Shown piece by piece: positions 11,580 to 41,291 of a stretch of 64,000 nt of DNA. A program made the translations under genes and the position numbers. Source of the stretch: Candidatus Uhrbacteria bacterium (lineage in GTDB: Bacteria > Patescibacteriota > Patescibacteriia > UBA9934 > GWF2-40-263); contig JAERTI010000055.1 in NCBI GenBank assembly GCA_016844925.1, positions 1,459-65,458 on the forward strand. The letters run 5' to 3'. The stretch's first letter is position 1, and each line of letters opens with the position of its first letter. A model generated the notes under the pieces. That model did not search any database. It saw only the letters and a list, made by a program, of their open reading frames with translations, and had not been told where the DNA came from.

Positions 11580-11646
11580 AAAAATTGTTCGACCTTTAAT
11601 TAAAAACTGCAGACTTGCGCCGCAGTAGAAAAAGGTCGAAACCTTT

Positions 11647-11692
11647 CACCTCGACGGGACTTATGCGCTAGGCAACCCGTTGTCTACGGCAG
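11647..11692 (-). promoter_or_regulatory. L10 leader RNA (ribosomal protein autoregulatory element)
   Basis: Minus strand CCGTAGACAACGGG...TAAGTCCCGTCGAGG matches the L10-leader core. A second hairpin (TTCGACCTTT/AAAGGTCGAA) lies before rplJ. Confidence 0.8.
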
Positions 11693-11709
11693 ATCTTCAG
11701 TTCGAGGAG

Positions 11710-11738
11710 ATAATAGATCATTCATATTAGGCTGTCAA
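11710..11738 (-). promoter_or_regulatory. Sigma70 promoter of rplJL
   Basis: TTGACA-N17-TATTAT. Confidence 0.8.
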
Positions 11739-11776
11739 CCGTTTACCAAATAAAAAAACGAGTGGTCGTACACTCG

Positions 11777-12154
11777 TCAGGAAGCCTTGTTGAACACCTG
11801 ATCGCGCTCAAGGATCTCGACCCCCATCATCGGAGGGAGCAACGTCTTGAGGCCCAGCTCGTACTTGCGTGAGAATTCAGATGGGCCAGCAATTGACCGG
11901 CCAGAGAGCATGAGCACTCGCTTGTTCCCCAGACCCACATCGCCGATCACAGACAAGGACCAGTCGTTGTGTGTGCCCAGAACCCATCGCCCGAGACCAG
12001 CCTTACCTCCCTCAGGCTCCCACGTAGGGTCACCTGTTTCCCCCACGATGATCTGCTGAAGACGCCAGGCCAATGCTCGACCAGGATGATCACCCTCCTT
12101 GGCCATCCAGTACGAATCGTTTTCAGGAACAGCTATAAATACACTCACGTTCAC
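11777..12154 (-). CDS. Hypothetical protein (accessory cassette)
   Basis: AAGAAGGTG SD-like site near GTG start (12154 or 12148); followed by ACGAGTG/CACTCGT hairpin plus T-tract. Confidence 0.6.
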   Translation of the reverse strand: MNVSVFIAVPENDSYWMAKEGDHPGRALAWRLQQIIVGETGDPTWEPEGGKAGLGRWVLGTHNDWSLSVIGDVGLGNKRVLMLSGRSIAGPSEFSRKYELGLKTLLPPMMGVEILERDQVFNKAS

Positions 12155-12231
12155 CTTCTTTCTGCCGGATAGAATCCAACGAAATTAAACTAAAGAAAAA
12201 ACAGCCCTGCGTCAAGGCTGTGCGTTGGGTG

Positions 12232-13098
12232 CTAGGGCACCACTCGGAAGTAAATGATCATGATGTCATCGTCAGGATCGATGCAGCGTGACGTGGTCAG
12301 AAGTTCGATCTCGTCCCAGGGCGTGACCCAGGCGCGGCCGCGGAGCTCCCTCATGACCTGCTCGACAATCTGGTTACCGCCGTCGACGCACAGGGCGAAT
12401 AGCTCGTGTTCTCCAACCTGTGAGAGCGGGAACGCGCGGCACTCGGGGATCGACGGAAGTAAATCTGCGAACTCCCAGTCACCGAAGGTGCGCGTTGGCT
12501 CGAGCCGAAGCGTGTGAGACTTGTCACTTGTGACGATCTTCAGGTACGTGATCGTTCCATTTCCGGACATTCGTTGATCCAAGGCGAACCGCTTCTGAGC
12601 CAGTGCGCCGGCGAGCCGACGTCGCTCAGCGCGATTGCTGTAGACATGATCGTCGGAAAGCCTCCTGTAGCCGACACCTCGATCCATCGAGACATAGAAA
12701 CGTCCATCCCCCACCTGAGACAGGTAAAACGTTTCATCAAGGAACGTGACACAACTCGCCACAGCCCCCACGAACCTCAGGCCTGCTCCAGGCTTCAGGC
12801 TTACGCGTTTGCGCCACGGCTCAAGAGACGTCGTCACCGCACTGAAGTTCCCATGCGCATGCACAGGTTCCGGCCGAGCCGTAAACCGATCGCGCAATCC
12901 CACAGCCACCTCGGCCGCAAAGTCAGCCACCTGGTGAGACTTGAGGATCTTGATGTTGTTGCGGTCTACTTCTGCCCCGTGACCATCGACCACGGCAGCA
13001 AAGAACGGTTCCCCCTCCTGGGAGTGCACCGCGCAAGCATCTTCGCTCGGACACCCCTCGTAGCGAGGGACGAACACGAACCGGTACTCAACCCGCAT
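12232..13098 (-). CDS. PP2C/PPM-family protein phosphatase-like protein (accessory cassette)
   Basis: SEDA, AVVDGHG, SQVGDGR, LSDDH, TRTFGD, LCVDGG, DDDI; SD AAGGGAG; own promoter and terminator. Confidence 0.8.
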   Translation of the reverse strand: MRVEYRFVFVPRYEGCPSEDACAVHSQEGEPFFAAVVDGHGAEVDRNNIKILKSHQVADFAAEVAVGLRDRFTARPEPVHAHGNFSAVTTSLEPWRKRVSLKPGAGLRFVGAVASCVTFLDETFYLSQVGDGRFYVSMDRGVGYRRLSDDHVYSNRAERRRLAGALAQKRFALDQRMSGNGTITYLKIVTSDKSHTLRLEPTRTFGDWEFADLLPSIPECRAFPLSQVGEHELFALCVDGGNQIVEQVMRELRGRAWVTPWDEIELLTTSRCIDPDDDIMIIYFRVVP

Positions 13099-13177
13099 CG
13101 GGTCTCCCTTCTTCGCGCCTTATGCGCGAGAAACAAAAGATGCCTGTCTCCAGGCATCCTGTCAATCACTCAATGTG

Positions 13178-13888
13178 CTAGCCGCCAATCACGGTTCCCA
13201 AGAACCGCTTCCCTTTCAAAAGATTATCGAGATTCTCCATGTTCTTTCCGTTTAAGATTCCTACACGGATTCCGCTATGATGAGCCAATCGAGAGGCCAC
13301 GGGATCAAACGGTGCGCTCATGCCAGGGTCCCACTCATTCCCCACCATGGCACGAAAGTCTTTCCATGAAATGTCGCAGATCACCTCAGCGTCTTTATGC
13401 TTATTCGGATCTTTATCGTACACGTAATCAATGTTCGACAAGTTGATCACCACCTTAGCCTTCAAGCGCTTGGCAATACGCGTAGCCACGTAATCTGTTG
13501 ACCAGCCTGGCTTCCATCCTGCTGCAACCATCACTGGCTGCTTCCATCCACGGATTGGCCGACTTGGATCTTTGAGCATGACCGGGTGCGCAACCTCTCG
13601 CAGAACAGTCCTCATAAGATGTCCGTTCAAGCGTGTCGCATGAATCCCCAACCAGTCCAAGTCATCACGCGTAAGTTTTCCAACCTGCCGTGCGGCCTCT
13701 TGATAATGCCGCGCTGTTCCTCCTCCGCCTACAACGATAACAAATCGCCATCCGCGCTTGATATGTTTTTTGATCAACTTCTTCAGGTCCTTCAGGAACG
13801 CGTGATCAATGTTCCCATTAGGAACCACGAGAGAGCCACCGACAGAAATAACAAGCGTAGACGGTTCGAGCGAATTGGAGTGGGTCAT
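13178..13888 (-). CDS. pyrH: UMP kinase (archaeal/CPR type)
   Basis: VISVGGSL, VVGGGGTAR, PGWSTDYVA, YDKDP, APFDPVAS. Confidence 0.92.
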   Translation of the reverse strand: MTHSNSLEPSTLVISVGGSLVVPNGNIDHAFLKDLKKLIKKHIKRGWRFVIVVGGGGTARHYQEAARQVGKLTRDDLDWLGIHATRLNGHLMRTVLREVAHPVMLKDPSRPIRGWKQPVMVAAGWKPGWSTDYVATRIAKRLKAKVVINLSNIDYVYDKDPNKHKDAEVICDISWKDFRAMVGNEWDPGMSAPFDPVASRLAHHSGIRVGILNGKNMENLDNLLKGKRFLGTVIGG

Positions 13889-20118: not shown

Positions 20119-20607
20119 ATGGACGACGACCCAGCCCGCCGCGCGCAACGCTTTCCACTGCTGATCAAACTCGACGAAGACGGTATCGAGTTCACGCACT
20201 TCTTCAACCGCATGGGGCACGTTCGCCTCCCACCCCAGTTCCCCGACCCGCTCCAGAAGCGTGTCCTACAGCTGATCGAACGACTCATGGCTCTACAGAT
20301 CCAAGCCCTCCAGCTCATCCCCGATGAACTACCTCGCTACCAGATCAACGGCACCTGGTCCCCGCTCCCCGCCTCGCTCACCCCAGAGACAGAAGACACC
20401 CTCTTGCTGACTGCCTGGTGGATGGAGCTCGAGAGACGAAAGACCACCCGCCACGACGACTGGGACTGCCAGGAGTGCGGGAAGCTCGTCACACGCAAGC
20501 GTGGAATCTGCCAGAATCACGAATGTGTCTCGTGGGACATCCTCCACATCATCACGGGAGACCCTCATCTCCACCTCGTGCCCAAGACCGGCACAGACAA
20601 CGACTGA
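20119..20607 (+). CDS. Hypothetical protein with C-terminal Cys4 zinc ribbon (accessory cassette)
   Basis: CQECG...CQNHEC; SD AGGAG; extended -10 TGtTACGAT. Confidence 0.7.
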   Translation: MDDDPARRAQRFPLLIKLDEDGIEFTHFFNRMGHVRLPPQFPDPLQKRVLQLIERLMALQIQALQLIPDELPRYQINGTWSPLPASLTPETEDTLLLTAWWMELERRKTTRHDDWDCQECGKLVTRKRGICQNHECVSWDILHIITGDPHLHLVPKTGTDND

Positions 20608-20689
20608 CCCTCTTGAGGGTAACCTCTCCGATCTTACGTCGGAGTTTTTTCTTTATCCATTGACAAAACACATAAAAAGCCCGTACGCT
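20605..20689 (+). repeat. Variant GACCCT..AGGGT palindrome, terminator and promoter module
   Basis: TGACCCTCTTGAGGGT (the TGA is the upstream stop); CTCCGA/TCGGAG-TTTTTTC terminator; TTGACA-N18-TACGCT. Confidence 0.7.
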
Positions 20690-20767: not shown

Positions 20768-21901
20768 ATGGAACAGAGGCAGACCGCCTTGTTCGCCCCG
20801 CGGCTTCTCGTCGCATCCTTCATCATCCTCACGGGCGCTGCCTGCGGTGACCTCTCGGTCTCCGACACGGCGCTCAATGAGTTCGAGCACGCCGGTGGTG
20901 TGTGGGAAACGGACGATGGATTCAGCCACATCGTCTACGATGGCAACAGCTACGGCGACTCCATCACCGACTGCATGAGCACGGAGTACGACTTCGCCCT
21001 CATGTTCGGGGAGTGCTACGAGTACGCTTCCATCCCCTACGCCCTGGGCGCGGTGACGAGTGGCGGCACCATGGACGTGGAGAACCAGTCCACGGGCTCA
21101 TGGGCCACCATGGACGCCTCCAGCTTCCTGGACTTCAACGGCCTCACCCCCGGCATCGCCCGCGTGCTCTGCTACACGGACAAGCCGGAGGAGTACAAGG
21201 CCGACTGCGAGGTCGAGAACGACTACGACAGCTTCGCCCCGGACTTCTACATGGAGATCGACACGGGCGACTACAACACCATCACGGTCTACCGTGGCAG
21301 TGCCAGCAGCGGCCTGGGCGAAGTGTTCCTGGGCAAGGACGGCGACTACAACTGCGACGGCGTGGACACCCCGGACGCCACCGTGCGCCTGGTCCGCACC
21401 TCGCTGGCCTACGACAGCGCGATCATCGAGCTGCTGGGCGAAGGCGGTCACGTCACATGGCCCGAGTGCATGCCCGACGGCTGGTACGACGAGCCCGAGG
21501 ACACCGGCGGTGCCGGCGACACGGGTGGTGACACCGGCATGGCGGGAACCGGTGAGAGCGAGGAGGTTCAGAACTTCCAGTATCCACCGATGTTCTACAT
21601 CACGAAGATCAACGCCCTGTGGCAGGTGACGCCCCAGAGCCAGCAGGCCTACCAGGCCACGGCGGACAGCTTCTTCGAGGAGCACCACCCCGAGCTCTAC
21701 GGCAGCGACATCCACCTGTTCGTGATGCGCCGCATCGACGCGTACTTCACCGACGCCTCCACCCGCGTGTTCTACGACACCCTCCTGAACACCATGGACC
21801 TGGCCGTCGCGCTGGATCTGCAGGCCCCTGCGAACAAGATCTTCGGGCACTGGATCAAGAACTACCGCCACTGGGAAGCCAACCGACAGAACCCTTTCTA
21901 G
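20768..21901 (+). CDS. Secreted acidic lipoprotein with DTG-rich linker (accessory cassette)
   Basis: Lipobox LTGAAC; EDTGGAGDTGGDTG; almost all codons end in C/G; terminator CCCTGACC/GGTCAGGG. Confidence 0.75.
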   Translation: MEQRQTALFAPRLLVASFIILTGAACGDLSVSDTALNEFEHAGGVWETDDGFSHIVYDGNSYGDSITDCMSTEYDFALMFGECYEYASIPYALGAVTSGGTMDVENQSTGSWATMDASSFLDFNGLTPGIARVLCYTDKPEEYKADCEVENDYDSFAPDFYMEIDTGDYNTITVYRGSASSGLGEVFLGKDGDYNCDGVDTPDATVRLVRTSLAYDSAIIELLGEGGHVTWPECMPDGWYDEPEDTGGAGDTGGDTGMAGTGESEEVQNFQYPPMFYITKINALWQVTPQSQQAYQATADSFFEEHHPELYGSDIHLFVMRRIDAYFTDASTRVFYDTLLNTMDLAVALDLQAPANKIFGHWIKNYRHWEANRQNPF

Positions 21902-24882: not shown

Positions 24883-24905
24883 ATACCCCCAGTATATCAG
24901 GAAAC

Positions 24906-24938
24906 AAAAAATAGGGGGCTCGATGCCCTCTATTTTTT
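24906..24938. terminator. Bidirectional intrinsic terminator
   Basis: AAAAAATAGGGGGC-tcgat-GCCCTCTATTTTTT. Confidence 0.8.
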
Positions 24939-24974
24939 ACTCCTCACCACCTCACCTTCCATTCGGTCCACCAC

Positions 24975-25139
24975 GGCGAACGAGCGCTGGGACAATTTTG
25001 AGTCGGACAGTGTCCCTATAGATCTCAAAATTCGTACCAGCGATCGGTTCGCCCAGCCATAGCGAGACTACACGCCCCCATCTCGACAGGCTCGATGAGT
25101 ATTTGTCGAAGCAATCGAAAAGCCTCAAGTGTCTGCTTC
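24975..25139. ncRNA. Candidate structured RNA (unassigned)
   Basis: No credible ORF. Rod GGCGAAC/GTTCGCC, CGCTGG/CCAGCG, AATTTTGAG/CTCAAAATT, plus hairpins TCGACA/TGTCGA and GAAGCA/TGCTTC. Confidence 0.4.
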
Positions 25140-25146
25140 ACGAGCA

Positions 25147-26238
25147 CTAGAACAGCTTCCCTTCCTCTGCATCTGGCTGCATTTTCTCTCGCTCACGAGT
25201 AGGCCCCTCCCACGGGAATCCCTCTCGACCAAAATGCCCGTAGCTCGCTGTCGCCTGATACACAGGCTTGAGCAAATCTAGTCGCTCCACAATCGCCTCA
25301 GGCCGAAAATCAAACTTCTCTTTAATCAAATTTGTCAGGTCCATCTTAGCCCCCTTGGACTTCACGCCTATCCCAGCCGCATGAATATGCACGGGTTCAG
25401 CGCGACCCATCGAATACACCAGGTTCACCATCGCTGCAGACGCCAGGCCCTCTGAAACAATGTAGCGCGCGGCGTGCCGAGCCATGTACGAACCAGCACG
25501 ATCCACTTTCCCTGGATTTTTTCCAGAAAGTGCACAGTCCCCATGTGGAATCAGACCCCCATAGGTATCCACGTTCGACTTGCGCCCACTGGCACCAGAG
25601 TCTGCGCGGAATCCCACCTCTGTGAAACTTCCAATGGGATTAATGTAAAGCTGCGCGCCCTGCTCTCCCACAATCGGTACGAGCAACCGCTCCAGAAGTG
25701 CTGTCTGTACATCCTTGTCAGCCACGCTCACCTGGTGCGATGCACACACGGTCACGCCCACCACCTTGTCGCGGTCCATGACCACCTGCACTTTTCCATC
25801 AGGCTTGAGCCAAGAGAACGCAGGATCTGTCTTGCGCAAGTCATCAAGCCGTCGAGAAAGGTTGTGTGCGTAGACCACTGCCCGCGGCAGAAGCTCGCGC
25901 GTCTCACTCGTCGCGTACCCGTTAATCACCACGTTATCCGTCGTGCCGTTTTTAATGCGCTTCATTTCATCGGACTGCGCCTCGATGTTTACAAACACCT
26001 CCACATCATCTCGGTAGCCGATGTCCTTATACACCTTCTGTGCGAGCGCCCCGATATCAAAGTCCGCCGTTGAGGTCACCTCCCCACCAATCATCATCAT
26101 TCCGTGACTCCCCATTACATTGAGATCCACCTGGGCCTGTGGGTCTCGGCGCAAATATTCATCAACAATAGCATCGGCAATCTGGTCACAAACCTTATCC
26201 GGATGCCCCTGTGTAACAGATTCAACAGTCTTTTTCAT
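25147..26238 (-). CDS. metK: S-adenosylmethionine synthetase, divergent
   Basis: ESVTQGHPDKVCDQIAD, PDGKVQV, GRK..VDTYGG, KVDRAGSY, TASYGHFGR; start at TATG 26238. Confidence 0.85.
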   Translation of the reverse strand: MKKTVESVTQGHPDKVCDQIADAIVDEYLRRDPQAQVDLNVMGSHGMMMIGGEVTSTADFDIGALAQKVYKDIGYRDDVEVFVNIEAQSDEMKRIKNGTTDNVVINGYATSETRELLPRAVVYAHNLSRRLDDLRKTDPAFSWLKPDGKVQVVMDRDKVVGVTVCASHQVSVADKDVQTALLERLLVPIVGEQGAQLYINPIGSFTEVGFRADSGASGRKSNVDTYGGLIPHGDCALSGKNPGKVDRAGSYMARHAARYIVSEGLASAAMVNLVYSMGRAEPVHIHAAGIGVKSKGAKMDLTNLIKEKFDFRPEAIVERLDLLKPVYQATASYGHFGREGFPWEGPTREREKMQPDAEEGKLF

Positions 26239-26348
26239 AGCGACGACAGGATAACAGATGAGTACCCTACCTTCAATTGTTGACAACTCACAGGGAGCAA
26301 GGTGAAATGCCTCAGCCGCACACGATGTGACGGTAGAAAGGCCTCTCG

Positions 26349-26891
26349 ATGCCCCCTGCTCCTGCTCCCCCGTTCCTGACTCGACTCGACGCCTACAGCC
26401 TCTCCCAAGCCGAGAACATCCTCTTCCTGGGAAGCCTCTGGTTCCTGTTCATGAGCTTCCTCATGTTCGTGCAGCCGGGCCCTCTGGATCCGAAGCTGCT
26501 AATCGGCATGACCATCACGCTTCTGGCCGGCGTTGGACTTGGGTGCTGGAGCATCTGGTACCAGCTCACCGGCGAGCACAACGTGTACAAGAAGTTCATC
26601 ACCCTGTGTGAGGAGCAAAGGCTCCTGCAGCAAGGTGAAGAGCTCGCCGCCAGCTACGCGCAGATCAACAGACTCCGACGCATCTACAAGGAAGACACGA
26701 GCCTGTCTGAGACCATGGTGGCGCGCATGCTCAAGGACCTCGACCTCGAGGAAGAACTCCTCCGCGAAACGCAGGTGGCCCTCCACCTCAAGCAGGCGCC
26801 GCTCCTGCAACGAGCCTTCGAGGCAAGCCGCCACGCGTTCCCCTGGGAGAACTTCACCGAGACGGCCAAGCAACCCGCTGTGAGCACCTAG
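26349..26891 (+). CDS. Hypothetical 2-TM protein with coiled C-terminus (cassette)
   Basis: Two TM helices; GC3-rich; upstream TTGACA at 26280. Confidence 0.7.
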   Translation: MPPAPAPPFLTRLDAYSLSQAENILFLGSLWFLFMSFLMFVQPGPLDPKLLIGMTITLLAGVGLGCWSIWYQLTGEHNVYKKFITLCEEQRLLQQGEELAASYAQINRLRRIYKEDTSLSETMVARMLKDLDLEEELLRETQVALHLKQAPLLQRAFEASRHAFPWENFTETAKQPAVST

Positions 26892-26906
26892 CTCACGACG
26901 CCCACC

Positions 26907-26962
26907 GACCCTCACGCGAAGGGTCTTTTTCTTTTGACAAAAGCTCTCAAAACTCCTAACGT
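26907..26962 (+). repeat. Cassette-boundary element (variant) plus promoter
   Basis: GACCCT-cacgcga-AGGGTC-TTTTTC-TTTTGACA-N17-TAACGT. Confidence 0.8.
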
Positions 26963-26991
26963 CACCCCCTGCTCTTTCAAAGGAGACGCGG

Positions 26992-28509
26992 ATGGCAACG
27001 ACCAGACTCCGGTGGCTCAGCCGGTACCCAATCCCGGGAACAACTGGCCAGCTCATCGGTTCCAAAACAAACGGACTACGCCCTGCAGCAAACGCCTCAG
27101 GTGTGCTTTCAGAGCACATGTCCAACCACGTCCTGAAGAAAATCAATGGCGACCCAGAAGTTCTCGAAGAGATCCTCAGGGCCGTGGTCAACTACTCGGT
27201 GGCCGATTTCCAATGTGCCGCGCATGCGCGCACGGCCATCTTCCGGTGCCTGGTGCAAACGGGTGACAAGTACCTCACTCAACTAGACAGCCTGCTCACC
27301 AAAGCCCACAGGACCTTCTCCAGAATCCCCTACGCTCTGAACATGATCGGCTTCACTGAAGCATGCGGGTTCCGCTACGATCGCGTCGAGCACTACCTCA
27401 TGCTCATCGAAACCCTCGATACCTTCATGGCACGTGAGGTGGGGCCCTGGCTGCCACACGACGACAGACGGAAGCGACCTGCTTACGTTAGCGGTGCGGC
27501 CAAAGGCCTGTCAGAACAACTCGGTCTCGAACCAGGTTCTCTGAAAGCGCTCGGTAAGCCTCCGCTCAGACTTAGACCACGAACTCTCGCTCTAAGCTGC
27601 GAGCTTCACCTCACAGCGCCGGGCGTGAACGAGCTCATGCAGTACACCACGGCCGGCGGAATCGCCCTCACCCTCGGGGCCCTCTGGAGGACCGTCGATG
27701 CCATGCTCCACGCGGGCATGTCTTCCGGATCATTACGCAAGTTCGTCGAACGACTGAACGTCCCCATGCTTCGCTGGGCGCACCAATGCCTCCAAGCAGG
27801 CTCCATCGATCTCAAGATGGTTCGTGCACTACCCCAGCAGCCACTGGACTGGTACATCGCACAGAAAGACCTAAACCTAGACGTTCTCCCTGTGCTGAAA
27901 GCCTGGTCCGATGAAGGCCACCCCTGTGGGTGGAGTGAGTGGATCAAGTTGGGTGGTACCACAGACGCCTGGCAACAAGAGGCCAAAAGGCAGGAGCAGC
28001 GCAAACTCGAACGAGAAGCGCACTTCGCTCAAAAGCAGGCAGGGACAAAGCCGCCATCGCCGCGACCCAAACCAATCCCTACGGTGTCACCTGCGAATCA
28101 AACCCCCACGGGAAGAAAGCGACACCATCCTGGCCACAAAGCACAAGAGCAGACGCAGGAAATCAACTGGGGGGAGACTCTCGTGAATCTCGTAGAGATG
28201 GTTCAAAGCCACCTAGACGATGTTGATGACAATCTCTCCGCTGGAATCCTCCTCTCGCTCATCCGCTCGGGTGATCGCCTCATGCCACGGTCCCGCTGGC
28301 CCAAGATGAAACTCAACAAGCTTCGTCGAGAAGTGAAGCGGCTGGTCGACGGCGCAAGCAACCGTGAGATCAATGCCGCGCTTGGATCCCTAGAGGCCAT
28401 CCGCCTTGTCCGGCAGACCGCTGGCAAGTACCACATCTCCGAAACCACGCCGCGCCACACGGGCGCAGCCGAAATCCGCAAAAGGCTCATCAGCCTCTGC
28501 AGCTCCTGA
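26992..28509 (+). CDS. Hypothetical protein, possible C-terminal winged helix (cassette)
   Basis: 505-aa ORF; SD AAGGAG; C-terminal REINAALGSLEAIRLVRQTAGKYHI. Confidence 0.7.
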   Translation: MATTRLRWLSRYPIPGTTGQLIGSKTNGLRPAANASGVLSEHMSNHVLKKINGDPEVLEEILRAVVNYSVADFQCAAHARTAIFRCLVQTGDKYLTQLDSLLTKAHRTFSRIPYALNMIGFTEACGFRYDRVEHYLMLIETLDTFMAREVGPWLPHDDRRKRPAYVSGAAKGLSEQLGLEPGSLKALGKPPLRLRPRTLALSCELHLTAPGVNELMQYTTAGGIALTLGALWRTVDAMLHAGMSSGSLRKFVERLNVPMLRWAHQCLQAGSIDLKMVRALPQQPLDWYIAQKDLNLDVLPVLKAWSDEGHPCGWSEWIKLGGTTDAWQQEAKRQEQRKLEREAHFAQKQAGTKPPSPRPKPIPTVSPANQTPTGRKRHHPGHKAQEQTQEINWGETLVNLVEMVQSHLDDVDDNLSAGILLSLIRSGDRLMPRSRWPKMKLNKLRREVKRLVDGASNREINAALGSLEAIRLVRQTAGKYHISETTPRHTGAAEIRKRLISLCSS

Positions 28510-28532
28510 CCCTCCTGAGGGTCTTTTTTCTT
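28508..28532 (+). repeat. 25-bp cassette-boundary repeat, copy 1
   Basis: GACCCTCCTGAGGGTCTTTTTTCTT; overlaps stop TGA 28507-28509; runs into TTGACC-N17-TACGGT. Confidence 0.9.
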
Positions 28533-28593
28533 GACCAAGCCCTCCATCTCCCCTACGGTGGCCCTCCGGCGTACGCTGGTAAAGGAACGTACC

Positions 28594-29151
28594 GTGTCAC
28601 CACACCACACCCCTTTCGAGCAAAGAAAGGGGCCCACCTACTTCACCTACGACGAAGTGCTCGCAAAGAGCGACGTGCAGATCATTGCCCTGAGCCTGCT
28701 GATCCCCGTGATGTTTGGCGCTCTGGCAGCGGCCTGGATCTACTTCCCCATCCCAACCACCGCCCAAGACAACATCCCGCTCTTGGTGACCGCTGGCTTG
28801 ATCTCCTCGCTCTGCGCCGGAGGCATCGGCGTCTCGCGCCTCCTGCGCTTCGACCGCACGCTTCACGCCGTGCGAACAAGCGACGAGGGAAAGAGGCTCT
28901 TCAACCGAGGGAGCACCTTGGCCACACTCCACCAGGCAATCCTGAAGGAGGAGGAAGATAACCACTTTCCTCGAACCAAAGATTCCTTTGAAAAGCGCGC
29001 ACAACGCTACCTTGACCGCTGGACGTACTACATCTCGCAGGCCGAGGCGCTCCACCGAGAGCAGCACAACCTCCTCAAGCTCTTCTACCGAAACGAAAAG
29101 CAGCCCGATCCCTGGAAGGATCGATGCAACTGCCCCAAGTTCGGACTCTGA
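28594..29151 (+). CDS. Hypothetical 2-TM protein (cassette)
   Basis: AAAGGA SD then GTG 28594; two TM helices and a helical C-terminus; architecture like 26349-26891. Confidence 0.7.
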   Translation: MSPHHTPFEQRKGPTYFTYDEVLAKSDVQIIALSLLIPVMFGALAAAWIYFPIPTTAQDNIPLLVTAGLISSLCAGGIGVSRLLRFDRTLHAVRTSDEGKRLFNRGSTLATLHQAILKEEEDNHFPRTKDSFEKRAQRYLDRWTYYISQAEALHREQHNLLKLFYRNEKQPDPWKDRCNCPKFGL

Positions 29152-29174
29152 CCCTCCTGAGGGTCTTTTTTCTT
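29150..29174 (+). repeat. 25-bp cassette-boundary repeat, copy 2
   Basis: Identical to copy 1; overlaps stop TGA 29149-29151; TTGACA at 29174. Confidence 0.9.
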
Positions 29175-29239
29175 TGACAATTCAACAAATCAACGCTTAG
29201 ATACCGACGTCACAGCACGCGTGACAGAAAGGATGCTTC

Positions 29240-29518
29240 GTGAGCGAACAGAAGATTACCCCAGCTGCCCTGCGCACGGCCTTCAAGCAGTCCATCAGAA
29301 ACTCTCTGGTGGTGGCACTCATCCTGGTCATCTCCATGGCCGTTCTGAGATTCGGCGTCTCACCGGAACCCAACGCAGAGGCCCATGCAATCGTCCTGGG
29401 CTTTGCTGCGCTCCTGCTGGTGATCGTCCTCTGGCACATGATCGGCAACATCTTCTTCTACTGGACCCACCCCGTCCGACGCGCAGCACTCCCAGACCAC
29501 CAGGAACCCTCCTCCTGA
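29240..29518 (+). CDS. Small 2-TM hypothetical protein (cassette)
   Basis: AAAGGA SD plus GTG; two TM helices. Confidence 0.65.
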   Translation: MSEQKITPAALRTAFKQSIRNSLVVALILVISMAVLRFGVSPEPNAEAHAIVLGFAALLLVIVLWHMIGNIFFYWTHPVRRAALPDHQEPSS

Positions 29519-29525
29519 CCACGCC

Positions 29526-29550
29526 GACCCTCCTGAGGGTCTTTTTTCTT
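29526..29550 (+). repeat. 25-bp cassette-boundary repeat, copy 3
   Basis: Identical to copies 1-2; followed by TTGACA(29564)-N17-TATATT. Confidence 0.9.
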
Positions 29551-29651
29551 TTCCGCAGAACCATTGACATTTCAGTTAAAATGAACTATATTCTCGCTCT
29601 GCTTCATTTGTCATGGTGGAGCGGATGAACCCTACTGAAAGGAGACATGAC

Positions 29652-30491
29652 GTGAGGAAAATCCTCTTTCCCCTGCTGGTCGCGGCGGCCACGCTGCTCA
29701 CCGGCTGCTACGGAACGAACGTGGTCATCAACCCGGCGGAAGTCGGACGCGAGCTGAACCCCAGCGGGCTCAGCGAGACGATCCTCCAGCCGAGTTCCTT
29801 CAACCTCGACTGGTGCATGTACACCTGTCCGAAGCTGGTCCGCCTCGAGGTCGCCAAGGCCACCCGCGAGATCACCATCGAGCGCGTGTTCCTGCCCAAG
29901 AGCAACGTGGACCTCAGCGACGTCGAGATCGCGATGCAGTTCCGCGTCCGCCAGGACCAAGACTCCATCAACACGGTGTTCTCCGAGGTCACCCCGCAGC
30001 CCGCGGGTGTCGAGGACACCATGCTCATCTCCAACGAGATGATCTACGCCACCTACCTCGAGCGCATCGGCCCGGAGGCCGTGATCGAGGCGCTGCGTGA
30101 GTACACCGTCGAGGACGTGCTCTCCAACGTGGGCGAGATCGGCGCGCACTCGCGCGACATGGTCAACCAGCGACTGGGCGACAGCCCCGTCGAGGTGACC
30201 GAGCTCTCCTTCCCCAACGGCATCGGCGACCCGCCCGAAGAGGTCCTGGTGGCCAAGCGGCTGCTGTACGCGGTCGACGAGGAGAAGGCACGCGAGGTCA
30301 AGGCCCTGGAGGCCGAGCTCGCCGTGGAGGAGCAGCGCCAGGCCGTGCAGATGGCCCGCGCCAAGAACGACCTGGCCGTGGCCAAGGTGGTGGGCGTCCG
30401 CTACGACGTCTACACCGAGCTCAAGATCATGGAGCGCTTCGCCGAAGAAGAAGTGCCCCTGGGCTACATCCCCGGCGCCAGCGGCCGATAG
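29652..30491 (+). CDS. SPFH/Band-7 domain lipoprotein (cassette)
   Basis: Lipobox LLTGC; VINPAEVG; band-7-like core and C-terminal coiled coil; SD AAAGGAG plus GTG. Confidence 0.7.
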   Translation: MRKILFPLLVAAATLLTGCYGTNVVINPAEVGRELNPSGLSETILQPSSFNLDWCMYTCPKLVRLEVAKATREITIERVFLPKSNVDLSDVEIAMQFRVRQDQDSINTVFSEVTPQPAGVEDTMLISNEMIYATYLERIGPEAVIEALREYTVEDVLSNVGEIGAHSRDMVNQRLGDSPVEVTELSFPNGIGDPPEEVLVAKRLLYAVDEEKAREVKALEAELAVEEQRQAVQMARAKNDLAVAKVVGVRYDVYTELKIMERFAEEEVPLGYIPGASGR

Positions 30492-30503
30492 AAGGAGAAC
30501 GAC

Positions 30504-30887
30504 ATGAACTTCCTCGGACTGATTTCCTTCCTGGTCTTCGTCGCCCTCCTGATCGGCGGCGGTCTCTGGGCGATCCGTCACTCCATCACCCGTGAGGAGG
30601 AGGACGAGCGGAAGATCTTCAAGTACGGTGGCTGGGTGGCCATCGCCCTGGGGGTGTTCATCACCCTGGGCGTGCTCAACAGCTACGGCAAGATCGACGC
30701 CCCCAACCCCCTATCCGCTCCCGAAGCCGAGATCTCCTCGGTTCCCGCGGAGCGCGCCGAACCCCGAGCCCCCACCTTCGAAGAGGACACCACTCCCTCG
30801 GAGATGGAGAAGGCGCGGGAGGATCAGCGCAAGTCGGTGGACGAGTTCACCGAGCACACGAGCAAGGACGACGCGACCGACGAGTAG
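30504..30887 (+). CDS. 2-TM membrane protein, partner of the SPFH gene
   Basis: SD GAAGGAG; two TM helices and an acidic tail; terminator CCCTGGCC/GGTCAGGG-TTTTT. Confidence 0.7.
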   Translation: MNFLGLISFLVFVALLIGGGLWAIRHSITREEEDERKIFKYGGWVAIALGVFITLGVLNSYGKIDAPNPLSAPEAEISSVPAERAEPRAPTFEEDTTPSEMEKAREDQRKSVDEFTEHTSKDDATDE

Positions 30888-30966
30888 TCGCGCCCCTGCA
30901 CCCCTGGCCACACCGGTCAGGGTTTTTACATACAAAAAAATCACCGCTGCGTGCGGTGAGTTGCGT

Positions 30967-32914: not shown

Positions 32915-33529
32915 ATGTCCAATCTCACAAAGAAACAATCAGAAGTGCTCAAGATCATTCGCCAGCACCTCGACACCGAAGGCTACGCCCCTTCGTACCG
33001 AGAGATCGCCGATGCTCTCGGCCTCTCCTCCCCCTCCACCATCCACGCGCATGTTCAAGCACTCGTGGAGAAAGGCCTGATCGCCACCGGTGAGGATGGT
33101 CGCGCACGCTCCATCGAGCTCGTCGACGAATCTCCTAAGGGACCTTCCGTCATGCTACCGCTTATGGGCATCATCACCGCTGGTCAACCTATTGAGGCTG
33201 TGGAGGACAATGAAGCCATGGCCGTGCCAGCAGACTTTGTCCTGGACGGCTCCAACTCATTCGTCCTGCGGGTAAAGGGCCGCTCCATGATTGAAGACGG
33301 CATCCTTGATGGAGACTTCGTCGTCATCGAGCGCAACCCTTCACCACGCAACGGTGAAGTCGTCGTCGCGCTGATGGACAATGCTTTTGCCACACTGAAA
33401 CGATTTTACCGAGAAAGAAACCGTATCAGACTTCAACCCGCAAACAGCACCATGGAACCAATCTACGTCCAAGATTGCATCATCCAAGGCGTTGTCCGAG
33501 CTGTCATACGAAAATTCCAACCAGTGTAG
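32915..33529 (+). CDS. lexA: SOS repressor LexA
   Basis: LTKKQ, PSYREIA, ITAG cleavage site, VKGRSM catalytic Ser, ATLKRF, LQPAN. Confidence 0.95.
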   Translation: MSNLTKKQSEVLKIIRQHLDTEGYAPSYREIADALGLSSPSTIHAHVQALVEKGLIATGEDGRARSIELVDESPKGPSVMLPLMGIITAGQPIEAVEDNEAMAVPADFVLDGSNSFVLRVKGRSMIEDGILDGDFVVIERNPSPRNGEVVVALMDNAFATLKRFYRERNRIRLQPANSTMEPIYVQDCIIQGVVRAVIRKFQPV

Positions 33530-34931: not shown

Positions 34932-34983
34932 GATCACCTCCTTAGAAAAGACCCTACCAGACCCTCATGACCCGTCAATCACC

Positions 34984-41261: not shown

Positions 41262-41291
41262 GTCAAAAGAAAAAGACCCTCGTCAAGGGTC
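41262..41291 (-). repeat. Cassette-boundary element variant (terminator)
   Basis: Minus: GACCCT-tgacg-AGGGTC-TTTTTC-TTTTGAC, identical to 26907-26938 except the loop. Confidence 0.8.

Follow-up and report, generated by a model that had tools for sequence, protein, structure and literature searches.

Locally copied, predicted terminator junctions accompany gene turnover in the metK–lexA slot of a Candidatus Uhrbacteria genome

How do single genes enter a compact chromosome without breaking their neighbours? The accessible text of one study describes Patescibacteria as rich in orphan genes and frequent in gene exchange (PMC12455944). We addressed the question at a locus in a stretch of 64,000 nucleotides (the window; C55:1459–65458) from a metagenome-assembled genome (MAG) of a Candidatus Uhrbacteria bacterium (G000; 1.57 Mb, 97.7% complete), the relatives of which have genomes of 0.5–1.3 Mb. 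DNA of the window was found in seawater and marine metagenomes. At 26280–30930, five co-oriented units with six open reading frames (ORFs) form an array in which the 25-nt repeat GACCCTCCTGAGGGTCTTTTTTCTT occurs exactly at 28508, 29150, and 29526, as a first, sequence-only reading had described; any match arose in 0 of 100 shuffles. That reading took the array for an integron-like system, with gene cassettes bounded by a shared site and an enzyme encoded elsewhere. We found that the junction formed by the repeat stays in place while the genes before and after it change, that its copies are local, and that its duplication accompanies gene turnover. On balance we consider it probable that the 25-mer is a locally copied stop/hairpin/T-tract/TTGAC junction at which whole genes are gained, lost, or replaced, likely by short-homology recombination of the host or by template switching and with no dedicated recombinase, as proposed for the composite stem-loop/promoter elements (PeSLs) of T4-like phages.

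The array contains four junctions, named J0 (26907), J1 (28508), J2 (29150), and J3 (29526). The 25-mer folds into a GC stem of 6 bp that closes a 4-nt loop, with a T-tract behind it; it is predicted to be an intrinsic terminator directly adjoining the next −35 box. J0 is a 19-nt hairpin with a longer loop (26907–26925), a stem of 6–7 bp, and a T-tract. TGA stop codons overlap the 5′ arm at 20605, 28507, and 29149, as the sequence-only reading had noted, and the hairpin starts with the TGA of units 2 and 3 at the latter two positions. The same reading had the T-tract run straight into the next −35 box; this applies to J0, J1, and J2, where TTGAC starts inside the T-tract (at 26934, 28531, and 29174, respectively), but not to J3, where TTGAC lies at 29564, 14 nt beyond the 25-mer. 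A TAxxxT hexamer follows 17 nt downstream at J0, J1, and J3 and is weak at J2. By consensus match only, TTGAC-17-TAxxxT precedes three of the five units and TTGACA with a weak −10 box precedes the other two. The spacers and −10 boxes differ among the junctions, and TGAC frames the 25-mer on both sides in J1 and J2.

Within G000 the exact 25-mer is confined to about 1 kb of the array, and no further copy with up to 3 mismatches was found. The exact 25-mer gave 0 matches in IMG/VR and 0 in the GTDB genomes, collections in which the source genome and very near genomes may be left out. A looser GACCC..GGGTC-T4 stem occurs 11 times in G000, 10 times after accessory-class genes and once after a core gene, and is present in 15 of 41 related genomes. 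For the genome-wide counts, genes and terminators were called with custom scripts, which missed some genes; the counts of terminator identity cover the 15 larger G000 contigs, and those of turnover and TTGAC cover the 12 contigs with hits in G001, a genome of the same genus (median amino-acid identity to G000 76.5% over 761 best hits). TTGAC starts 7–8 nt after the start of the T-tract; taken up to a distance of 12 nt, it precedes 27 of 116 non-shared genes versus 9 of 92 shared genes. The sequence-only reading had allowed that a common terminator, also present after core genes, would speak against a cassette system; in part this is the case, with the looser stem behind a core gene in 1 of 11 cases and the T-tract/−35 arrangement before those 9 shared genes. 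The T-tract/−35 grammar is general, whereas the exact copy is local.

The variants that had been listed outside the array fared unequally. The inverted loop variant at 41262–41291 is, like that at 26907, a real hairpin with a T-tract (41265–41291, minus strand; hairpin 41275–41291), but it bounds no cassette, because it closes an old resident gene of 461 aa with a G001 orthologue of 68% identity. In G001 that orthologue carries a longer hairpin with the same base. The partial copy at 20605–20620 (plus strand) has the stop codon and the hairpin without the T-tract. The other supposed partial copy, at 34946–34970, was rejected: it has no hairpin, lies in a divergent GNAT/dinB promoter region, and is the same stretch in G001.

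We compared the window with a ~94%-identical strain present in metagenome contigs (runs X3–X7) from two other studies, hereafter the relative. As the sequence-only reading had anticipated for strain comparisons, relatives differ in the gene content of the array, with breakpoints at the element; this was the case for both of the two gene-content differences within the array (2/2). The first is a replacement. Contigs of the relative (X3, X4) skip 26897–28523 and carry 647 other letters there, the last 30 of which are ACCAGAACAACTGACCCTCCCCGAGGGTCT in X3, X5, and X7 (two studies). The same hairpin thus stands behind a different gene, and the match to the window resumes at the C before the TGA stop codon. 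The right breakpoint is 28505/28506, where the 505-aa orphan gene of unit 2 (26992–28509, plus strand) meets J1 one base before its stop codon. The stop codon of unit 2 is therefore supplied by J1, which comprises the TGA, the 25-mer (28508–28532), and TTGACC (28506–28536, plus strand). The loop of J1 is one base longer in the relative. Judged by its length and its likeness to the G001 linker, the gene before J1 in the relative is probably gene X, the 179-aa gene that G001 carries in this slot.

The second difference is the presence or absence of unit 5 (29553–30935, plus strand), which the relative lacks and where it has 10 other letters instead. The joint of 29552 to 30936 was seen in X3, X4, and X7, and the loose end in X3, X5, X6, and X7. 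The left breakpoint is the end of the T-tract of J3 (29526–29552, plus strand; 25-mer at 29526–29550), there is no target duplication, and the repeat element stands on one side only. The claim that cassettes are bounded by the element on both sides fails for this unit. Elsewhere in the array the relative has one T fewer at 29166 in J2 and differs at 11 positions in 566 nt of unit 1. Neither G001 nor the relative showed a rearranged gene order. Junction-to-junction joints or circles were not seen in the contigs of runs X2–X7, a type of data that drops rare variants. A patch of unit 3 (28875–28990) shows about 30 listed differences to the relative in 115 nt and looks recombined or fast-evolving.

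Outside the array, the match to the relative stops at 20620, the end of the partial copy, and the next gene (20768–21901) is almost uncovered; in the relative, 20620 is joined to a repeat of ~200 bp. This intergenic repeat occurs in the window at 24902–25106 and consists of a bidirectional hairpin, a C-rich linker, and a long imperfect hairpin. It has 11 core matches on the larger G000 contigs and 15 in G001, and the relative carries it at 20620 and 32809, two places at which the window does not. It has no Rfam match, and the genome has no Y1 transposase.

The array lies among core bacterial genes syntenic with G001; the core genes of the window are mostly on the minus strand, with orphan genes interspersed. 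Its slot is anchored on the left by metK (S-adenosylmethionine synthetase; 25147–26238, minus strand; Pfam PF00438/PF02772/PF02773) and on the right by lexA (32915–33529, plus strand; PF00717/PF01726), which are adjacent in 19 of 21 relative loci. Among these 19 relatives, the gap is ≤380 nt in 13 and holds varied genes in 6. The first unit begins with a predicted promoter, TTGACA-17-TGAAAT (26280–26308, plus strand; consensus match only), and encodes a 180-aa orphan with two transmembrane (TM) segments (26349–26891, plus strand), a resident belonging to a small tandem paralogue family, with a G001 orthologue of ~40% identity. It is followed by J0 (hairpin variant, T-tract, and TTGACA at 26907–26939, plus strand). 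Unit 3 (28594–29151, plus strand) is a 185-aa two-TM orphan, and its stop codon opens J2 (TGA, 25-mer at 29150–29174, and TTGACA; 29148–29179, plus strand). Unit 4 is a 92-aa membrane orphan resident in the genus (29240–29518, plus strand; G001 orthologue 52%).

In G001 the order of the slot is unit 1, J0, gene X, a remnant 5′ arm, unit 4, J3, and lexA. J0 is kept up to TTGACAAA, after which the different gene X follows. In regards to the junctions themselves, J0 and J3 of G001 differ at 2 of 19 hairpin bases, and J1, J2, and J3 of G000 are identical in their 16-nt form. Unit 3 is absent from G001; two other genera carry homologues in this slot, after metK in G050 and G005. The G050 homologue closes with a long hairpin whose base is likewise GACCC..GGGTC, and that of G005 closes with another hairpin in the same arrangement of stop, hairpin, T-tract, and TTGACA.

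The sequence-only reading had taken the identical elements behind unrelated genes as a sign of copying. Copying is borne out; the genes are unrelated only in part. Units 1 and 3 are probable paralogues (HHalign 82.9%, E 9e-6, 160 columns; BLASTP E 0.004), and gene X is a paralogue of unit 1 (E 1e-7), with no significant similarity between gene X and unit 3. Part of the array is therefore an old tandem paralogue family. The 505-aa gene, the 92-aa gene, and the SPFH gene pair of unit 5 showed no homology to the 180-aa and 185-aa genes.

Is such local copying peculiar to this slot? Among 363 called terminators of G000, exact hairpin identity over at least 14 nt was found in 6 of 335 near same-strand pairs versus 0 of 63,746 far pairs, and the six near pairs represent four loci with four different sequences. 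In G001, identity over at least 12 nt was found in 3 of 155 near versus 1 of 30,246 far pairs. A stretch of a further genome (G039) contains two identical terminators separated by 384 nt, in a region that shows no clear ORF. The copies are linked to turnover. Over G000 and G001, similar adjacent terminators occurred in 12 of 177 non-paralogous gene pairs with at least one non-shared gene versus 0 of 79 pairs of shared genes (Fisher p 0.02), with a background of 0.2% and a count of 3 of 14 among paralogous neighbours. In all 12 pairs the shared block begins at the stop codon or linker, includes the hairpin, and reaches the T-tract or TTGAC; it is 26–48 nt long or slightly more.

The clearest empty/filled site is the trpS locus (G000:C41:54698–58150), where an unrelated 711-aa gene with low GC at third codon positions lies between two stop-hairpin-T-TTGAC blocks; G001 has one junction and no 711-aa gene. 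In the rplJ–pyrH slot (window 11600–13180) all genes differ between G000 and G001, and the terminator and a hairpin-bearing promoter region are kept; in G001 this terminator is duplicated over 38 nt, the stop codon included. Across genomes, terminators in the same slot behind non-homologous genes reached the 99th background percentile in 17 of 183 pairs, a count that includes paralogue-family genes and bidirectional terminators and is not relied on. Each locus has its own copied terminator, and junction duplication accompanies gene turnover. A site shared among loci, as the integron-like interpretation requires, was not seen: the 25-mer is restricted to the array, and other loci have their own duplicated terminators. 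The locus offers breakpoints at base level together with a two-genome statistic that ties turnover to copied terminator/−35 junctions. Two further short repeats, one around TGCATTCAATGCACGA and a palindrome around CGGAAGCTAAGCTTCCGG, were observed in spacers of G001 contigs C8, C16, C17, and C19.

The enzyme that the integron-like claim places elsewhere in the genome was sought in G000. The best match to the integron integrase (IntI) model TIGR02249 scored 118 bits against a cut-off of 265, and there were 0 matches to Y1 transposase (PF01797) and 0 to reverse transcriptase (RT; PF00078). An integron, a transposase of repetitive extragenic palindromes (RAYT/REP), and a group II intron or RT were accordingly rejected as enzyme sources. 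IS110 occurs only on the small contigs C6 and C45, which have no G001 best hit, and was rejected as the enzyme for its confinement to small contigs. Tyrosine recombinases gave 15 matches, two of them on core contigs: C36 (87% G001 orthologue) and C38. No mobility gene was found among the 66 window ORFs scanned. ComEC is present in G000, and no match to Rho exceeded the cut-off. We observed that G000 contigs below ~20 kb (C1–C17 and others) are mostly without a G001 best hit and probably mis-binned, and that most integrases and IS110 copies of G000 sit on them.

In regards to the genes that changed, the 505-aa gene belongs to a family of ~500-aa orphans, conserved in their C-terminal part, that forms only 48 clusters at 50% identity. 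There are 10 further paralogue matches in G000, with tandem arrays on C20 (6.7–13.1 kb) and C43 (234.6–250.7 kb); the members there end in other terminators and include recent tandem duplicates. No Pfam, PHROG, or PDB match of weight was found for the family; winged-helix hints are weak (E 0.03–0.09), and the best Atlas value of 0.80 is a lead at most. Unit 5 comprises a consensus promoter TTGACA-17-TATATT (29564–29592), an SPFH/Band 7 lipoprotein gene (29652–30491), a gene for a 127-aa membrane protein (30504–30887), and a different terminator of its own (30902–30927), all on the plus strand. A search of 72 other genomes of the family did not find the SPFH gene; the protein collection lists 89 relatives, a number that counts its own entry, and no relative was confirmed in GTDB contigs. 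The same pair of SPFH lipoprotein and ~125-aa membrane protein genes also occurs on two IMG/VR contigs of 103 and 619 kb (L163 and L164), and this presence on large viral contigs is a hint of exchange with jumbo phages. Other searches returned one 97% relative without genomic context (protein search), one locus only, unrelated (metagenome scan with unit 1), and 2 weak matches far below the gathering score, taken as chance (Rfam scan of 18–44 kb).

How might these junctions have arisen and exchanged genes? We propose that a junction would end one transcript and start the next, as its predicted signals suggest. J0–J2 may first have arisen when a gene for a small membrane protein was duplicated in tandem together with its terminator; short-range conversion could later have made J1–J3 of G000 alike, and likewise J0 and J3 of G001. 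Incoming DNA, probably acquired by natural competence, would join at shared motifs such as TTGAC, the T-tract, or the stop/hairpin. If the strand rejoined at the next junction, a replacement would result (unit 2); if at the same T-tract, a plain insertion (unit 5); if at the start of the same junction, an insertion with a duplication of 26–48 nt (trpS on C41). Selection would keep only those events that leave promoter-gene-terminator units intact. A candidate route for the joins is homology-facilitated illegitimate recombination, in which, according to the accessible text of PMC6382021, foreign DNA is integrated in a RecA-dependent manner through microhomology of 3–10 bp; alone, it gives no duplicated junction.

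Several points weigh against this account. The terminator and promoter assignments are predictions. Only the final 30 letters of the 647-nt unit of the relative were seen, and the left breakpoint of the replacement is 26896 or up to ~45 nt further. Other breakpoints of the relative lie at terminators of other families (30936 and 32809). The 12 duplicated junction pairs are not all independent, with 3 from the metK–lexA slot (2 in G000 and 1 in G001), and some genes counted as non-shared, unit 1 among them, are orthologues that have diverged fast. One G001 case has the new genes on the upstream side of the resident gene, which is not what a simple target duplication yields, and in G005 (another genus, 267 kb) 0 of 29 near pairs share at least 6 nt. 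A length of 25 nt is short for RecA. Finally, selection alone would also leave breakpoints at junctions, because other breaks destroy a gene or its signals.

This last point leads to the strongest alternative, a passive relic, in which ordinary terminators descend from tandem duplication with occasional conversion, genes turn over by random illegitimate events spread through homologous recombination in the conserved flanks, and selection alone places the breakpoints. The probable paralogy of units 1 and 3 with the middle gene of G001, the recent tandem duplicates in the arrays of the 505-aa family, the shared terminators of the 3 paralogous neighbour pairs, the mostly empty metK–lexA slot of the relatives, and the breakpoints at unrelated terminators all fit such a history. 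Yet the 12 duplicated junctions stand behind genes without BLASTP similarity, at trpS the stop codon and terminator of a core gene were copied behind an unrelated gene, and conversion between 25-nt junctions is itself junction recombination. A recombination bias and selection for intact units are inseparable here, and we therefore hold junction-guided exchange to be probable only on balance and the passive relic to be possible, though doubtful.

A bolder idea, which we regard as improbable, is that the terminators of Patescibacteria themselves serve as capture sites for foreign genes, through a structure-guided process that would open any stop-hairpin-T-tract junction, insert a promoter-gene unit, and rebuild the junction behind it as a duplication of 26–48 nt. 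Each new gene would then arrive insulated, often using the stop codon of the host, and the route would be site-free and integron-like, with a so far unnamed enzyme. More unlikely again is a dedicated capture system whose enzyme reads the structure of the hairpin instead of its sequence and inserts or swaps promoter-gene units, sometimes duplicating the junction. In its favour, 5 of the 12 pairs have a shared block that begins only a few bases from the stop codon, the stop codon of new ORFs is often a resident one, tyrosine recombinases are present on C36 and C38, and a separate array system with its own repeat exists on C43. Against it, the ends of the block shift by as much as 30 nt with respect to the stop codon, three topologies occur, and the searches above gave no shared site, no IntI above the cut-off, no Y1 transposase, no RT, IS110 only on small contigs, and no mobility gene among the scanned ORFs of the window.

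A tiny mobile terminator, similar to REP elements or miniature inverted-repeat transposable elements and copying itself behind genes without moving them, would accommodate the TGAC frame at J1 and J2 and the looser copies in G000 and related genomes. We consider it very unlikely: the exact copies lie within 1 kb, the hairpin is older than the gene before it, a GACCC..GGGTC base follows the unit 3 homologue in another genus, and no RAYT/Y1 transposase was found in G000. That a chimeric join at a short repeat built the array during assembly is hardly credible, despite the many small contigs of the MAG without G001 best hits, as a contig of run X2 spans 25068–28497 with 1 difference, contigs of the relative span J1 to J3 in the same order, and G001 keeps the outer units in order.

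The array resembles integrons and clusters of attC sites lacking integrases (CALINs) in its co-oriented single-gene units, in palindromic boundaries able to carry a stop codon, and in a gene content that varies among strains, units being gained or lost where the boundary element lies (in the relative, at J1 and J3). Integron attC sites are palindromic and carry RYYYAAC/GTTRRRY boxes. In agreement with the sequence-only reading, which had reported such ends to be missing, no box pair 40–160 nt apart was found within 160 nt of any of the 6 sites on either strand. The hairpin here has 16 nt, in contrast to the long attC; each unit has its own predicted promoter, whereas cassettes are mostly promoterless; and there is neither an IntI above the cut-off nor a site common to the loci. 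REP/RAYT systems and the terminator targeting of group IIC introns differ in that G000 has no Y1 transposase or RT. The double-hairpin arrays on C43 of G000 (CTCCATC..GATGGAGTCCCG) are distinct from the metK–lexA array: their frequent exact 14-mers occur only on C43 and not on C55. These arrays were observed at 13–33 kb and beyond, with 23 exact 14-mers, all on C43, and two matches in G001:C5.

Minimal mobile elements of Neisseria are replacement slots between conserved genes. The fixed slot between metK and lexA with varied or no genes, in a lineage with competence genes, is similar, but here units are also exchanged singly at internal junctions. We found no paper on such junctions in Patescibacteria or cellular chromosomes in a literature search that left most subscription journals and supplements outside, and the words "integron", "terminator", and "direct repeat" do not occur in the accessible text of PMC12455944.

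The closest parallel is the PeSL. The accessible parts of two reports describe PeSLs as composite stem-loop/promoter elements between orphan genes of T4-like phages, with insertions and deletions mapping there and mini-circles demonstrated by inverse PCR (Arbiol 2010, PMC2839356; Comeau 2014, PMC4122927). PeSLs have also been assayed with lacZ fusions in E. coli. In both cases, variable regions have orphan genes separated by copies of a terminator stem-loop just upstream of a sigma70-like promoter (predicted here), the sites of insertion, deletion, and replacement coincide with the element (here in the array and at the trpS and rplJ slots), and a dedicated recombinase has been identified in neither. 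The differences are that the present junctions lie in a cellular chromosome among core bacterial genes and not in a T4-like phage; that only the stop-hairpin-T-tract(-TTGAC) is shared and not the −10 box or the Shine-Dalgarno sequence; that the sequences are locus-specific, whereas PeSLs form one genome-wide family; that the stop codon often lies within the hairpin; and that mini-circles were seen for PeSLs, whereas here the contigs of six runs, which drop rare variants, gave no junction-to-junction joint. The feature is real, the integron reading is unsupported, and the junctions are a PeSL-like variant in a bacterial chromosome and not strict members of the PeSL family. If selection alone explains the breakpoints, the array would be a tidy but ordinary local duplication. 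Transformable Saccharibacteria, described in the accessible text of PMC10633639, exist as a test system. Should the junctions prove to be genuine points of exchange, the concept of the PeSL would carry over from T4 phages to cells.

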